Below, piece by piece: positions 27,331 through 45,425 of a stretch of DNA of 64,000 bases. The stretch lies in assembly GCA_947463915.1 (NCBI GenBank), contig CANHVO010000004.1:2022-66021 (forward strand), in the 5' to 3' direction. The notes beneath the pieces are model-generated. The model was not told the origin of the DNA. It did no database searches and worked only from the letters and a program-made list of their open reading frames with translations. Numbering within the stretch: position 1 is the stretch's first letter; each line of letters opens with the position of its first letter. Made by a program: the position numbers and the translations under genes. Origin of the DNA: Planctomycetaceae bacterium. Lineage in GTDB: Bacteria > Planctomycetota > Planctomycetia > Pirellulales > Pirellulaceae.

Positions 27331-27581
27331 TTGAAGTGCAAATACCAAGGTTGGGTTCTGAATTAATTCACATCAAAAGTTCTGCTCGTCACAGGAAGCA
27401 AGCCCTGCGGGAGGTACGCAATCACCGACCTCAAAATCGTCACAACCGTTTCTTTTTGTGTTAACGGGAGCATATATCCCAAAGCCAGCCCTATCTTCAA
27501 TGACAGGTGCAAAACGGCGCACTAACTTTTTAAGGCCATTTTACTTTTGATACATCATTGATTCTGAGTTTTGAGCTGGGA

Positions 27582-29414
27582 ATGACTGTCCGACAATTAA
27601 AGCCAACCGACATCAGCTTCACCAAAGTGGCTGATTGTTTCGTTGCCGAGTTGCGGAATGGCAATTCCCCCTCCATTGAGTCCTTTGCTACAGCCTTCCC
27701 ACACTTAAAAAACGACATTCGGGCAAATTTTCCCGCGTTGCTCATGCTCGAAAAAAATGTCTCGAAGAAAGGCGACCGTCCGGATACGCTCGTCGAGAAA
27801 GTCCTAGGCAATTGCCTTGTCCAAGAAGAGATTGGACGAGGTGCCATGGGGATCGTCTATCGAGGATACCAACAGGAATTGGATCGCGTGGTAGCGATCA
27901 AGACAATTCCTTTGGATGAAATGGCAAGCTTCGGTGTGGTTCAGCGTTTCGAACTTGAGCGACGCGCTATGGCGAAATTGGATCACACCAATATCGTTCC
28001 TGTCTACGAGTATGGTTACAACGAAGATCACGCGTATCTCGTGATGAAGTACATCGACGGTCATAGTCTGGACAAAATCTTATGCCCAGAAGCACAATAC
28101 CGTCTCAAAGTACTACTGGCTGAACTGCAAACCGACTGGAAGTCCTTTGCCGAATTAGGGATGCAAGTCGCATCGGGCTTGCAACATGCTCACGAACAAG
28201 GCTTGGTTCACCGAGATATCAAGCCTGCCAATCTTTTGTTCGACAACGCTCGAAAAATATGGATTACTGACTTCGGTCTTGCAAAAGCGTTTGATCACAA
28301 TCGTTCTCTGAGTCGCACAGGTGACGCGATCGGCACGCCTCGGTACATGGCCCCTGAGCAGCTTCGCGGGCATTGCGATTGCAGAAGCGACGTTTACTCA
28401 CTGGGGATCACGCTTTATGAGCTCGCAACGGGTAGTCGAGCTTGGCGGGACAGTTCGCTGGAAGCGCTAACAATACACCGAGAAAAGCTCAAGCTGAATA
28501 GCATCCTCGACGAAAACCCGGACATACCAGATGGGCTCGCCAAGATCATTATGAAGGCATGCGCGTTTGCGCCCGAGGACCGTTACCAGACAGCGAAGGA
28601 ACTGCAGTATGTCCTCGAGCGATTCGCTTCAGGAATCGCGCCAAGTGACCGAAGACGAAAACGACGTGAACCCGATGATATCTACCGCAGGCGTAGCAAA
28701 CGGACGGCTACAATGCTTGTCGCGTCTGCCATCGGGATTCTCATGTTTAGCGTGGTTTTTTCAATCGCTTTCAGGCGCCAGTCTGGCGATTCTCAAGCAC
28801 AAGCACAGACGCCCAAGATCCTCCCTAGCGGCGAGAATTTCATTGAAGCTCTTGGAGATCCGAAATCTGGAGACCTTGGACTCGCCTTGACCAAACTGGT
28901 CAAGGATTCCATTGAAAATTCGAGCAGTCAGTTTCGTCTTGAGGACGGTGACAAAAACCAGATTCTAAACAGCACCGAGGAACTGCTGTCGCGCATCAAG
29001 AATCGAGACCTCAGCGGAAAATCCTTCAATTCCTTTTTGGAAGGATACCGGGAATCTTCGCTGCCAGCCGGCACCCAGATTATGAGCTTGGTTCGATTCG
29101 TCGAACGTTCTAAATTCAAGCCTCGTGAAGTTGAAATGGCTTACGATACGCTTCGTGGATTCGCAAAGCTGGTTGTGAATAGAGAGATACCGGAGCAAGA
29201 AGCGTACTCCATGATAGCCATCCTAACTGGCGGCAAAGTGCTCTCGGCGGCTGAGTTGGCTCAATACAACGTTTCCGACGAAAAGCTATTTCAATGGCTC
29301 ATGATGGTTCGAAACCGAATCTCTCGTGCTCCGGCACAGGCTCTACAAGGAAAAATGAACATCGCAACAGAGATCGAACGCGCGCTGCGAAACCCACCCA
29401 AAGGCGATCGATAA
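27582..29414 (+). CDS. Membrane Ser/Thr protein kinase, co-transcribed with an ECF sigma factor
   Basis: IGRGAMGIVY, VAIK, HRDIKPAN, DFG, GTPRYMAPE; TM MLVASAIGILMFSVVFSIAF. Alternative TTG start at 27558. Confidence 0.93.
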   Translation: MTVRQLKPTDISFTKVADCFVAELRNGNSPSIESFATAFPHLKNDIRANFPALLMLEKNVSKKGDRPDTLVEKVLGNCLVQEEIGRGAMGIVYRGYQQELDRVVAIKTIPLDEMASFGVVQRFELERRAMAKLDHTNIVPVYEYGYNEDHAYLVMKYIDGHSLDKILCPEAQYRLKVLLAELQTDWKSFAELGMQVASGLQHAHEQGLVHRDIKPANLLFDNARKIWITDFGLAKAFDHNRSLSRTGDAIGTPRYMAPEQLRGHCDCRSDVYSLGITLYELATGSRAWRDSSLEALTIHREKLKLNSILDENPDIPDGLAKIIMKACAFAPEDRYQTAKELQYVLERFASGIAPSDRRRKRREPDDIYRRRSKRTATMLVASAIGILMFSVVFSIAFRRQSGDSQAQAQTPKILPSGENFIEALGDPKSGDLGLALTKLVKDSIENSSSQFRLEDGDKNQILNSTEELLSRIKNRDLSGKSFNSFLEGYRESSLPAGTQIMSLVRFVERSKFKPREVEMAYDTLRGFAKLVVNREIPEQEAYSMIAILTGGKVLSAAELAQYNVSDEKLFQWLMMVRNRISRAPAQALQGKMNIATEIERALRNPPKGDR

Positions 29415-29433: not shown

Positions 29434-30051
29434 ATGAATACACTGCAAACAGACTCGAGTTCAGCACGTTTGCTAGATTTACTCAAGCAAGGTGGCGGCC
29501 GAGAATTAACAGCTCTGTTCATGCGTTCGCGCAGCCACATCCGAAGACTGGTTGAGTCTCGCCTCGACAAACGTCTGCTGGCACGAGTCGACGCGTCGGA
29601 TATCGTTCAAGAAACGTTTCTTCGTGCGACAGCAAGTATGGACGCTTATCTGAAGTCACCAAAAGTTCCCCCAATTGTCTGGCTTCGCCTAATCGGAAAG
29701 CACATCGTGGCCGAGACGCACCGGCGCCATTTTCGCGAAAAGCGTAGCCCTGAGCGTGAGAACAATTGGTATCAAGACGGAGACGATGTACTCAGCCAAA
29801 AGCTGATCGACTCCATGCACTCTGTCGGCACTTGGATGGCTCGACGGGAGCTGGCGTTAAAGGTGCAAGACGCGATCAAGAATTTATCCGACCAAGATCG
29901 TGAAATCATCGAGATGAGACACTTAGAGGAACTCTCGATCAAGGAATCGGCAATGGTCCTAGAATTAAATATCGAGACAACCAAGAAGCGATACTATCGC
30001 GCTCTCACCCGTTTTCGAGAGCTGGTCGCGGACATCCTACCGAACGAGTAA
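29434..30051 (+). CDS. ECF sigma-70 factor, planctomycete TIGR02984-like
   Basis: RLDKRLLARVDASDIVQETF in region 2; LSDQDREIIEMRHLEELS in region 4. Confidence 0.9.
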   Translation: MNTLQTDSSSARLLDLLKQGGGRELTALFMRSRSHIRRLVESRLDKRLLARVDASDIVQETFLRATASMDAYLKSPKVPPIVWLRLIGKHIVAETHRRHFREKRSPERENNWYQDGDDVLSQKLIDSMHSVGTWMARRELALKVQDAIKNLSDQDREIIEMRHLEELSIKESAMVLELNIETTKKRYYRALTRFRELVADILPNE

Positions 30052-42255: not shown

Positions 42256-44811
42256 CTACAGCGAAGACAAGTTCGCTTGGATTTGTTTTAGAACCCCGGA
42301 CTCGTTCGAATGTTCTGGCAAGAGCTTACATACACGTTGTTGGTATTCGCTCGCCTTTCGAAAGGCATCGGTGGCTGATCTTTTGTCACCGTTGCTTTTC
42401 ATCAATACGCCGAGATTGTTCCACATACCTGCTGCGCGCTGGGCAGCACCAGCGTCATTCAAATCGGAATCCGCTGCTGTTCCTGCGATGGAAATTGCCC
42501 TTCGAAACGCAGCGTCCGCGTCACTCTTTCGGGCTAGCGACGAACATGCCATGCCGAGATTATTCAGGCTGATCGAAAGCTCACGGCGCGGGGCAGACGA
42601 GGGTGACGCAAGAGCGCTCACTCGATCGAAGTGCTCAATCGCTTGCTTGTACCATTCAATCGCCTCACGAGTTCTTCCGTTTCGAAAGAGGGCAGAGGCA
42701 GAGTTATCGCAGGCCAAGGCCAATCGCAGAATTGCCTCCGGAGTTTCTTTTCTTTTGACCGCTTTTTGTCGCAAAGCCAAGCCCTGCGCTGCGGCCTTTT
42801 CGGCTGGTTCAGGTCGACCAGCCTCGCCAAGCAGAACAGAAAAATTGATCAGAGTATTCGCGAGGTAGTCGTCTGCGATTTCATCTTGCTCCCCAGAGTC
42901 CGACGACGCTTTGGTTTTTTCGTTACTTAAGCCTTCGAGGATGACGATTGCTTCGGCGCTTTCTTGGATCGCCTTCTCGATTTCTCCTCGACGAAATGCG
43001 ACCATCGCTTGAGTGTGGTGTGAGAGAGCTTTGGCTCGTGCGCGACGATCCGAATCAGGTATCGAGTCTGCGATGCCGTTGGCTTCGTTTAGCAATGCCT
43101 TGCTAAATTTTTGGTCCCCTTGGTTGCTTCGAAGAAGCACCCATTCATGAATCGCCAAATGCAGGGTCGAGGCGATCCCCGAGTTAGTATTATCCCTGTA
43201 GGCAACGCGTAATGCTGTGACTGCGTCGCGATAAGCCGCGTCCGCTTCATCGACGCTGCCGAGGGTCTGAGTGAGCCTCGCAATTTTCAGCGTGGTGTCT
43301 GCAACATCGATAGCAAGCCGAGGATCGTTGTTAGCAGACGCGATAAACAACTCGTAGTAACCTAGCGTTTCATCGAGCAGTTCGCGACGCAGTTTTTCCG
43401 TACCAGAAAGCTGGCTCAAGCGTTCGGCGAATCTCAGGCCAAGAGTGTCCACGGCATCGCGGGCCTGCCTGTAATGCAAATCCGAGGAGCGAAGGGCAAG
43501 TTCGGTCGATCGCTTTTCGTTCCCCATCTGAAAATTGAAAGCGCTAAGGACCATGATCGCAACCATTGAAACCAGCAATGCCACCGCGATTCGCCCCGAA
43601 TGGATGCTGGTCCAATTCTTAGCTCGTTCGCCGAAGCTAACCGTATTGGCCAAAATTGGCTGCCCAGTTGAAAACCGAAGCAGATCTTCTGCAACCAAGG
43701 CAGCGGACTGGTAGCGATCGGCTCGCTCAGGTCGCATGGCCCGTCGAATGATCGTTTCAAGGTCTCGAGGTAAATTGCGATTGTATGCCGCAGGTCTCAG
43801 CGGCTCTGAAGTTTGGATGCGACTGAGTATCTCGCCTCGCGCCATTCCGCTAAACGGTGAGTGCCCCGTAAAGAGTTCGTAAAGCGTGGCTCCCAGGCTA
43901 TAAATATCGGAACGGCAATCGATCCGCTCGCGTTTGCCGGAAGCTTGCTCGGGACTCATGTATTGGAATGTGCCAATAATGTCGCCAGAGTATGTCAGAT
44001 GGAGTCCGTCCTCAACATGCGCCAAACCAAAATCGGTTATCCAAACATGGTCCGAGGAATCGATTAGCAGATTGGACGGCTTGATGTCTCGATGAACAAT
44101 ACCCATCGTATGGGCCGCGTGCAACGCGTCGGCCACATTTGCCATCTCTTTAGCCAACGTTTGGTAAAACTCAGCTCCTGACGGAGGTGTCGCTACTGAA
44201 TCGGCGTCTCGATGAAAGGCTGCATCGATGCGTTGCGATAGCGAAGTGCCATCGATCAGCTTCATTGTGTAGTAGTGTCGGCCGTTGTCGCAACCTATGT
44301 GATAGACCGGAACAATGCTGGGGTGATTCAATGATTCTGCGGCTCGAGCCTCGCGGCGAAAGCGTTCGATGGAACTTTGGTTTCTCATTCCTTGAGTTTC
44401 TAGGAACTTGATCGCAACCTCGTTCCCCATGGGCTCTTGCGTGGCTGCATAGACAACGCCCATCGCTCCGCGCCCAAGCTGACGCCCTATCTGAAAGCCA
44501 TCCACGCTTTGCGATGGGCTCAAGCCTAACGATTCCGTTGTCCCTCCGATATTCGATTCGCCGGTTCCCTGCACGCGATTTAGCATTCGAATGCTCTCGA
44601 GGGAAGATCGAAGCGGGCCAGCAAGTTCTGGATACTCGGCAACAATCGATTCGACCGACGGACATCGCCCATTCTCGAGATCGACCAAATAGCGATCCAA
44701 GATTAAAACAACTCGGTCTTGCGTTTCCGAATCCAATCGATCTATCCAGTCCGTGCCCGAAGGCTCGCTAAATCTGTTCAGATTGAATCCTTGTTTGGGT
44801 GGATGACTCAC
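42256..44811 (-). CDS. Ser/Thr protein kinase with TM and TPR-like repeats
   Basis: LGRGAMGVVY, VAIK, HRDIKPSN, DFG, GTFQYMSPE; TM; helical repeats. GTG start overlaps the sigma stop codon (GTGA). Confidence 0.93.
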   Translation of the reverse strand: MSHPPKQGFNLNRFSEPSGTDWIDRLDSETQDRVVLILDRYLVDLENGRCPSVESIVAEYPELAGPLRSSLESIRMLNRVQGTGESNIGGTTESLGLSPSQSVDGFQIGRQLGRGAMGVVYAATQEPMGNEVAIKFLETQGMRNQSSIERFRREARAAESLNHPSIVPVYHIGCDNGRHYYTMKLIDGTSLSQRIDAAFHRDADSVATPPSGAEFYQTLAKEMANVADALHAAHTMGIVHRDIKPSNLLIDSSDHVWITDFGLAHVEDGLHLTYSGDIIGTFQYMSPEQASGKRERIDCRSDIYSLGATLYELFTGHSPFSGMARGEILSRIQTSEPLRPAAYNRNLPRDLETIIRRAMRPERADRYQSAALVAEDLLRFSTGQPILANTVSFGERAKNWTSIHSGRIAVALLVSMVAIMVLSAFNFQMGNEKRSTELALRSSDLHYRQARDAVDTLGLRFAERLSQLSGTEKLRRELLDETLGYYELFIASANNDPRLAIDVADTTLKIARLTQTLGSVDEADAAYRDAVTALRVAYRDNTNSGIASTLHLAIHEWVLLRSNQGDQKFSKALLNEANGIADSIPDSDRRARAKALSHHTQAMVAFRRGEIEKAIQESAEAIVILEGLSNEKTKASSDSGEQDEIADDYLANTLINFSVLLGEAGRPEPAEKAAAQGLALRQKAVKRKETPEAILRLALACDNSASALFRNGRTREAIEWYKQAIEHFDRVSALASPSSAPRRELSISLNNLGMACSSLARKSDADAAFRRAISIAGTAADSDLNDAGAAQRAAGMWNNLGVLMKSNGDKRSATDAFRKASEYQQRVCKLLPEHSNESGVLKQIQANLSSL

Positions 44812-45425
44812 GACGCACTCTCGGAAAGATAAGCAGCCCGAAGTCGGTTAATCGCTCTCAGCCATAACAATCTAACAGCCTGTGGCGAACGATTCATGTG
44901 CGCTGCGATTTCGTCGAACGGTAGTCCGCCAAAGTTGCGCAGGGCAATGACCTTTTGATAGTCTTCGGAGAGCATCGCGACGTAATCGGCAACCCTTAGC
45001 GATTCTTCTTCCCCAGAGACGATTTGGCTGGGCGACGCTTGATTGAGCGCGAGAAAATTCCCCATTCCAACGCAGCTCGATTCAAGACAGGATTGAATCG
45101 CATCGATTGAAACTTCTCGCCGAACATCTCGTTTGCCAGCCTTCACGTTATGCTCGATTGCGCGGAGCAAGCATCGGGATAGGACGGTTCTTAGCCAAGA
45201 GCTGAACTCTGCTTGCGTTGTCCCTTGGAAGTCCCCTAAATCGCGGTGGGCGGCAAGCATGGTGTCCTGAACAATGTCAGATGGGCTGACGCGTTTTCCG
45301 ACTGGCCGTCCCATTTGCGAAGCGGCAAGCACGCGCATGTAATTGCGGTACGGCTCTAGCAAATCACCCACTGCTTCCGAGGCTCCTGATCGAGCCGCAG
45401 CAATTTTCGAAGCAAAGTTCGTCAT
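44808..45425 (-). CDS. ECF sigma-70 factor, TIGR02984 (Planctomycetaceae subfamily 1)
   Basis: GDLLEPYRNYM, KRVSPSDIVQDT, DFQGTTQAEFSSWLR, KRDVRREVSI, LLWLRA. Confidence 0.92.
   Translation of the reverse strand: MTNFASKIAAARSGASEAVGDLLEPYRNYMRVLAASQMGRPVGKRVSPSDIVQDTMLAAHRDLGDFQGTTQAEFSSWLRTVLSRCLLRAIEHNVKAGKRDVRREVSIDAIQSCLESSCVGMGNFLALNQASPSQIVSGEEESLRVADYVAMLSEDYQKVIALRNFGGLPFDEIAAHMNRSPQAVRLLWLRAINRLRAAYLSESAS

Follow-up and report, generated by a model that had tools for sequence, protein, structure and literature searches.

A conserved N-terminal module of two planctomycete Hanks-type kinases as a candidate docking domain for neighbouring ECF sigma factors

Results

The window analysed here, i.e., the complete stretch of 64,000 nt from a Planctomycetaceae bacterium (GCA_947463915.1, contig CANHVO010000004.1, positions 2,022–66,021 of the forward strand), harbors two genes for Hanks-type Ser/Thr kinases, in the following referred to as K1 and K2, each with an ECF sigma factor gene beside it. 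K1 (27558..29414, plus strand, 618 aa; Pfam Pkinase, 4.7e-49) comprises a kinase domain at residues 89–347 according to Pfam (27822–28598) and a single transmembrane (TM) helix, which was assigned by hydropathy to residues 383–401 (28704–28760). The gene of its neighbour sigma1 (29434..30051) follows 19 bp downstream on the same strand. K2 (42256..44811, minus strand, 851 aa; Pfam Pkinase, 6.8e-43) shows the same order, with the Pfam kinase domain at residues 106–373 (43693–44496, minus strand) and a single hydropathy-assigned TM helix at residues 403–421 (43549–43605, minus strand). Here, the sigma factor gene (sigma2, 44808..45425, minus strand) lies directly upstream, and stop and start codons overlap by four nucleotides (GTGA). 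The C-terminal regions of the two kinases, described as unrelated in the original prediction, are indeed unrelated: the part of K1 beyond the TM helix matches no Pfam family and that of K2 carries TPR repeats (42319–42861, minus strand) recognised by the Pfam TPR families.

Ahead of the kinase domain, both proteins contain a module which is matched by the profile A2 at residues 18–75 of K1 (27609..27782, plus strand; E 7e-16) and at residues 28–86 of K2 (44554..44730, minus strand; E 7e-21). Since each kinase has one hydrophobic helix, located after the kinase domain, module and kinase domain would lie on the same side of the membrane. Assuming a cytoplasmic kinase domain, as described for PknS (PMC13147305), the modules of K1 and K2 would presumably be cytoplasmic as well, together with the sigma factors.

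The two sigma factors are related to TIGR02984, which was matched by sigma2 with 200.7 bits, above the cut-off of 183.75, and by sigma1 with 142 bits, below this cut-off, as befits a diverged member. In both proteins, region 2.2 features a serine at the position usually occupied by glutamate: sigma1 reads DASD (29590–29601, plus strand) with Ser55 (29596–29598), and sigma2 reads SPSD (45276–45287, minus strand) with Ser49 (45279–45281).

Attention had been drawn to this locus by the proposal that both kinases share an unnamed 39-aa segment in front of the kinase domain (27633–27749 on the plus strand in K1; 44581–44697 on the minus strand in K2), which lies inside the respective module. Translation reproduced the two quoted peptides exactly, including the 13 of 39 identical positions in an ungapped alignment. 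The ungapped BLOSUM62 score of 76 and the identity count were reached by none of 200,000 shuffles. Comparing the whole proteins by BLASTP yielded one alignment, which runs from the segment through the kinase domain (E 1e-56). The segment alone retrieved the respective other kinase among 24,911 genomic ORFs (E 8e-4 in one direction, 1e-3 in the other), and all remaining matches of this search were N-termini of kinases. No Pfam or NCBIfam model, including the TPR and PPR families of Pfam, matches the segment even at E ≤ 10, and the designation “unnamed” is therefore correct for these two libraries. Likewise, our survey of the published literature yielded no description of the module or of fusions between zf-HC2 and kinases.

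The conserved unit proved to be longer than initially described, with about 58 instead of 39 aa. An HMM iterated within the genome converged on nine kinases (E < 1e-20), in all of which the module sits just before the kinase domain. With a profile of these nine copies, searching 1.84 billion representative proteins brought up 8,475 clusters at a threshold of E ≤ 1e-3, of which 376 remained at E ≤ 1e-10. The N-terminus of K2, used as query in a word-indexed search, returned close orthologues only. In a set of 162 proteins, consisting of 150 listed profile matches and the K2 orthologues, a kinase domain follows at a median distance of 22 aa in 99 cases (spacing of 6–27 aa, 10th–90th percentile), two tandem copies of the module occur in eight, and the short matches represent contig fragments. 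Short metagenome fragments place the module ahead of WD40 or nitroreductase domains. K1 and K2 both show a profile match over about 55 columns, the module before the TM helix and an adjacent ECF sigma factor gene on the same strand. Judged by these profile matches, the segment is part of a large, unannotated family of N-terminal domains associated with ECF sigma factors.

AF2 modelling of the K2 module with an alignment of 43 sequences (pLDDT 85, pTM 0.65) predicts three helices at residues 3–21, 28–34 and 36–60, i.e., with a long third helix and loops of six and one residues. The most conserved positions are a glycine after helix 1, a proline three residues later and a further proline at the junction of helices 2 and 3. 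The segment had been pictured as a helical hairpin; the helical character is retained in this model, whereas the 39-aa hairpin gives way to a unit of about 58 aa with three helices. For residues 1–381 of K1, prediction without an alignment resulted in an unusable model (pLDDT 36). A similarity by chance or composition, which an identity of only 33% over 39 residues might suggest, can practically be dismissed: it was already refuted by the shuffles, the reciprocal matches of genome-wide significance, the 8,475 matching clusters and the common fold predicted with confidence.

Searches for structural relatives gave no hit of significance. The profiles A2 and A4 matched no PDB chain significantly at E ≤ 10, and no anti-sigma factor; matches to PPR proteins and GspF in these sequence searches were sub-significant per domain. 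Foldseek comparison of the module model with the PDB returned nothing at E < 1 (66 matches at E ≤ 10). The weak top matches of this comparison are helical domains of sigma factors, to which we give no weight.

To place K1 and K2 in their genomic context, module (E < 1e-3), adjacency (< 1 kb) and sigma factors (by HMM) were called across the whole genome. A sensitive sigma HMM detected 73 ECF sigma ORFs, which face 78 Hanks kinases, 33 of them within 1 kb of an ECF sigma gene. The module precedes the kinase domain in 13 of the 78. Rather than being equally common in kinases without an adjacent ECF gene, it is concentrated beside sigma genes: 11 of the 13 module kinases are sigma-adjacent vs. 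22 of the 65 without module (Fisher p 0.0013). The anticipated co-occurrence with neighbouring TIGR02984 sigmas was equally found, as 10 of the 12 kinases beside a TIGR02984-type sigma carry the module, and a further one, on contig C337, shows a copy that is visibly diverged. The pairing is hence specific for a sigma family and goes with TIGR02984-type sigma factors. The comparative evidence thus favours the proposed tie to the cognate sigma factor, but not the notion that the module is common to all ECF-linked kinases, given the 22 sigma-adjacent kinases lacking it at E < 1e-3. Among the latter, 11 carry a zinc anti-sigma motif and three another module, and a diverged form of the module is present in some.

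Where the neighbouring sigma belongs to another ECF group, other modules precede the kinase domain. In the 11 kinases with the zinc motif, the place of the module is taken by a genuine HxxxCxxC (Pfam zf-HC2, checked for the kinase on contig C500), and all 11 are sigma-adjacent. Consequently, in parallel kinases of the same genome, a recognised sigma-binding domain holds the exact position of the unnamed module. On the contig of the window itself (C4), the genome scan found no zf-HC2. A third pre-kinase module is common to four more kinases, three of which are sigma-adjacent.

The partner sigmas themselves gave further hints. Of the 12 TIGR02984-type sigmas with an adjacent kinase, nine have serine at the glutamate position of the DAED motif (D-x-S-D), and three have alanine or cysteine there (contigs C512, C13 and C64). 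A TIGR02984-type sigma on contig C8, which has no adjacent kinase, reads DYAD, and glutamate is kept in those sigmas that are paired with separate zinc anti-sigma proteins. ECF43 and ECF59 sigmas, which usually come without an anti-sigma factor, lack DAED and are inactive until a Thr or Ser at this site is phosphorylated by the neighbouring kinase (PMC8999054, PMC8103513, PMC7826278), this residue being the phospho-acceptor (PMC8999054, PMC8103513). In the window, each sigma factor gene is located beside a Ser/Thr kinase gene and encodes a serine at the glutamate position; by motif and gene order, sigma1 (DASD, Ser55) and sigma2 (SPSD, Ser49) fit this phosphorylation-activated class.

The module was matched 51 times in 20 related genomes, and about 30 of these matches adjoin a TIGR02984-type sigma. 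A phylum-wide scan by pattern, based on a narrow sub-alignment, gave 63 loci from Pirellulales, Gemmataceae, Isosphaeraceae, Planctomycetaceae and Thermoguttaceae, few of them with a sigma gene within 4 kb. Most of these loci are orthologues of one kinase of about 1,800 aa, for which a lack of sigma linkage was first assumed; this was overturned when the sigma genes were found about 5.5 kb downstream. In fact, the sigma gene is located directly downstream of this kinase in 7 of 8 genomes checked, covering several planctomycete families, and also in the genome studied here. True orphans, i.e., module kinases with no adjacent sigma, do exist: several complete shorter kinases among the 63 loci, the module kinase on contig C1 and a conserved group of 750–790 aa (represented on contig C238 and in about nine relatives), which is never sigma-adjacent. 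A mirror-tree (distance-matrix) test on 10 pairs was not discriminating, as the correlation with the sigma factor is not higher for the module (r 0.35) than for the kinase domain (r 0.42).

The module also occurs in proteins without a kinase domain. In the database match P0044, three copies of the module are combined with a TM helix and DUF5667, and the corresponding gene begins 3 nt behind that of an ECF sigma factor; four homologues likewise follow directly after a sigma gene. In five kinase-less proteins, four of which are orthologues and represent one conserved operon, the start lies 3–66 nt past the sigma gene or overlaps it by 17 nt. Two genomes carrying such loci contain three further module matches, all of them in non-kinase ORFs abutting a sigma gene. 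Sampling of 61 genomes of this second phylum gave matches in 15, with all 18 new loci in the same arrangement. In total, 23 of 23 matches in the second phylum (16 genomes) form the N-terminal part of an ORF that encodes no kinase and begins directly behind an ECF sigma gene. Those kinase-less members examined in full length are single-pass membrane proteins, mostly with DUF5667, in which the TM helix comes after the module. These proteins thus occupy the position and show the architecture of an anti-sigma factor. Their neighbouring sigmas keep the canonical xAED in those sequences inspected, and the three that were scanned match TIGR02952 (BldN family) best, with 169–192 bits, which is below the cut-off of 206.

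Comparison of the kinase set with the kinase-less set by hhalign gave a probability of 98.4% (E 4e-15, 54 columns). Consistently, an HMM from the kinase-less set alone has module kinases as its top matches in the planctomycete genome, K2 among them. By these profile comparisons, the modules of kinases and kinase-less proteins are homologous. As the domain is the sole cytoplasmic part of proteins in the anti-sigma slot, it most plausibly binds the sigma factor.

The kinase-less proteins also bear on the question of whether the module acts on the kinase itself, e.g., by dimerization or autoinhibitory packing on the N-lobe, in which case the link to sigma factors would reflect kinase lineage only. 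The constant location 6–27 aa before the kinase domain (10th–90th percentile) in kinases, the orphan module kinases, the tandem copies and the distance-matrix test, in which the module had no advantage over the kinase domain, would all be compatible with such a role. In kinase-less proteins, however, the module cannot regulate a kinase because it is the only cytoplasmic part there, and it is always found beside a sigma gene (23 of 23, and three proteins from other assemblies). We therefore consider a purely kinase-directed function unlikely.

A second alternative, to which we assign a similarly low likelihood, is that of a general helical, PPR/TPR-like interaction unit with RNA polymerase, a phosphatase or a scaffold as partner in place of the sigma factor. 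In its favour, one half of the profile shows similarity to the PPR consensus (helix-G-x-x-P-D), with a summed E of 1e-11 for designed PPR proteins; its second half is matched by secreted repeat proteins, and fusions to WD40 and nitroreductase occur. The scores per repeat are, however, far below significance (about 4.6 bits against designed PPR proteins), and significance is obtained only when nine repeats are summed. Moreover, two unrelated architectures have in common that the module is located almost exclusively beside ECF sigma genes, which suggests the sigma factor as the shared partner.

Discussion

In this study, two kinases of a planctomycete were found to share an N-terminal module with a large protein family and, beyond this, with single-pass proteins in the slot of an anti-sigma factor. 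The best reading of the sequence comparisons is that of an anti-sigma-type domain for sigma docking, which the kinases would have inherited. Because the kinase-less relatives occupy the anti-sigma slot and zf-HC2 holds the same place in other kinases, we read K1 and K2 as sigma-docking receptor kinases. We assign a probability of about 0.6 to the proposal that their modules bind the cognate sigma factor and hold it at the membrane-bound kinase for phosphorylation; this value is not set higher in view of the orphan kinases, the occurrence of tandem copies and a distance-matrix test that did not discriminate.

Starting from family membership, gene neighbourhoods, the predicted fold and the sigma motif, we infer binding, phosphorylation and release to be arranged as follows. 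In the simple form, one to three module copies constitute the cytoplasmic N-terminus of a single-pass protein encoded directly after a canonical ECF sigma factor. In the form found in Planctomycetota, the module precedes a Hanks kinase domain, and the TIGR02984-type sigmas paired with it have swapped the acidic DAED contact for D-x-S-D. The modules of K1 and K2 would bind their cognate sigmas and keep them at the membrane-bound kinase, a contact which would also keep the pairs specific in a genome encoding 78 kinases and 73 ECF sigmas. The C-terminal domain on the far side of the membrane helix would sense a signal, upon which the kinase would phosphorylate the serine in region 2.2, and the phosphorylated sigma factor could then bind RNA polymerase.

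Docking may also entail inhibition. A sub-variant of the proposed mechanism would be pure substrate docking, in which the module raises local concentration and pair specificity and does not inhibit; we regard it as rather improbable. It would agree with partner sigmas that lack the acidic DAED contact, since loss of DAED makes ECF43-type sigmas intrinsically inactive (PMC8999054). Against this stands the kinase-less form, where the neighbouring sigmas keep xAED and no other regulator was found beside them in the stretch examined. On these grounds, the module appears to be ancestrally inhibitory, which argues that docking once inhibited the sigma factor in the kinase-less ancestral form.

Taken further, the module could represent a fourth widespread class of ECF anti-sigma domain, and the kinases could be anti-sigma factors with an acquired kinase domain that release and activate in one step. 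Here, a kinase domain would have been acquired between the sigma-binding module and the membrane helix, and phosphorylation of the region-2.2 serine would both release and activate the held sigma factor. We put this idea forward tentatively, as a possibility with the odds somewhat against it.

ECF sigma factors controlled by Ser/Thr kinases are established as a regulatory class, but have received little attention. The question of which kinase serves which sigma factor is especially sharp in planctomycetes, where dozens of each are encoded per genome, and the module provides a concrete candidate for the specificity determinant of such pairs. Moreover, it links kinase-controlled ECFs to ordinary sigma/anti-sigma pairs, and the origin of kinase control becomes directly testable because the domain is common to both types of ECF control. 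[quoted passage not shown] For many DUF5667 proteins, the kinase-less form would furthermore explain what the N-terminus does, and the known anti-sigma domains would gain a family of thousands of members that is not covered by the models of current libraries. Small orthogonal sigma-binding modules could also be useful parts for synthetic circuits.

Among known systems, the module is nearest in concept to RsbN, the class III anti-sigma factor of Streptomyces, whose cytoplasmic N-terminal domain consists of three helices, the third of them long, and which is encoded directly after the sigma gene bldN, with homologues reported only from Streptomyces (PMC6101532). Three helices with a long third one, and the gene position after the sigma gene in the kinase-less form are in line with this comparison. 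TIGR02952, the BldN-family model, is also the best match of the three scanned sigmas that neighbour kinase-less module proteins, albeit below its cut-off. RsbN differs, however, by long flexible linkers between its helices, where the module loops comprise six and one residues, and the sigmas of the window are of the TIGR02984 and not the BldN type. In addition, the profiles A2 and A4 gave no sequence match to RsbN, and it is absent among the 50 listed of the 66 Foldseek matches. Class I (zf-HC2) domains share the N-terminal place before a kinase domain or TM helix beside an ECF sigma gene, but the module lacks HxxxCxxC and the zf-HC2 kinases pair with a different sigma family. A class I identity of the module was ruled out by the missing motif and by hhalign, which gave 0.7% against 26 ZAS domains; Pfam zf-HC2 did not match at E ≤ 10. 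DUF5667 (PF18915) follows the TM helix in most kinase-less carriers examined and covers that part, not the N-terminal module, and differs from the module in being absent from K1 and K2.

With regard to the kinases, the closest counterparts are ECF43-type systems (PMC13147305, PMC8999054, PMC7826278). For PknS, a helical extension of 83 aa ahead of the kinase domain has been described without an assigned role (PMC13147305). The PDB chain 9eed_A (364 aa, kinase domain at 85–362) probably corresponds to residues 1–364 of PknS, as inferred here, and the module profile A2 did not match this chain; a sigma-binding domain is not mentioned in the literature surveyed on PknT- and PknS-type kinases. The overall design of K1 and K2 is that of the ECF43 systems PknT/EcfP of Vibrio and PknS/EcfK of Xanthomonas, in which a TM Hanks kinase is encoded beside an ECF sigma factor with Ser or Thr replacing the DAED acid, and the planctomycete groups ECF59, ECF61, ECF62 and ECF217 likewise combine a TM Hanks kinase with a neighbouring DAED-less ECF sigma factor.

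Distribution of the pre-kinase module beyond the window

A kinase of ~1,800–1,900 aa, carrying the module (the predicted three-helix pre-kinase segment of K1 and K2) at its N-terminus and followed immediately 3' by a gene for a TIGR02984-type sigma factor, is kept across Pirellulales, Gemmataceae and Thermoguttaceae. This arrangement was present in 7/8 genomes checked. It is located at C13:23683-29995 in the own genome (C-numbers denote its contigs) and at loci L032, L034, L037, L040, L043, L051 and L087 in other genomes. A conserved group of 750–790-aa kinases likewise features a strong module copy, and a sigma gene is adjacent in none of its members (C238:1958-4318 and approximately nine relatives, e.g., contigs G010:C245, G006:C376 and G008:C40 of related genomes). 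The own genome also encodes one TIGR02984-type sigma factor without an adjacent kinase (C8:10587-11252, motif DYAD), and pairing of this sigma factor with the orphan kinase might occur in trans.

The kinase-less form, with the module at the N-terminus of a single-pass membrane protein, lies within a conserved operon at loci L094, L097, L098 and L100, in the order pentapeptide-repeat protein, an unknown gene, ECF sigma factor, module-TM-DUF5667 protein and large DUF5666 protein. In a related genome, two kinases in succession, with one module copy each, come after a sigma gene (G002:C41:36186-44000). Furthermore, the 160-aa metagenome fragment P0101 combines, in this order, sigma region 4, ~40 residues and the module within one ORF; either the fusion of sigma and kinase is natural or the contig contains a frameshift. 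Other database matches, which align to the module profile in its second half, are the secreted proteins P0021, P0022 and P0039. They are composed of 8–9 repeats of F-L-x-x-H-P-E-[IV]-A-E-Q-L-R-K-[ND]-P-S-L, which may be a convergent helical repeat.

Other pre-kinase segments in the own genome

Further kinases on C84 (two kinases), C131, C132, C13:35034-38045, C39 and C12:34223-36958 are preceded by a segment that is related to the module but has diverged from it, in some cases as two tandem copies. This segment has the pattern C/A-D-x-F-E-x-x-W-x-x-G-x-x-P-x-x-x-E-[YF] ... LL-x-EL-[IL], and only some of these kinases adjoin a sigma gene. A third pre-kinase module, with the approximate consensus E-x-LF-x-x-A-x-E ... 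LR-x-R-[VI]-E-x-LL, is common to four kinases (C123, C166, C182 and C464), three of them adjoining more distant ECF sigma factors.

Outside the window, 11 Hanks kinases (C204, C38, C454, C500, C551, C582, C9, C350, C432, C59 and C82) carry a zinc anti-sigma motif (HxxxCxxC) immediately N-terminal to the kinase domain. All 11 adjoin an ECF sigma gene, and the Glu position of the region-2.2 DAED motif in these sigma factors is mostly neither Glu nor Ser/Thr. Full-text searches of the literature returned no description of such a fusion of the known anti-sigma domain zf-HC2 (Pfam) to a kinase, which is also found in the relatives G016:C189, G010:C165 and G017:C170.
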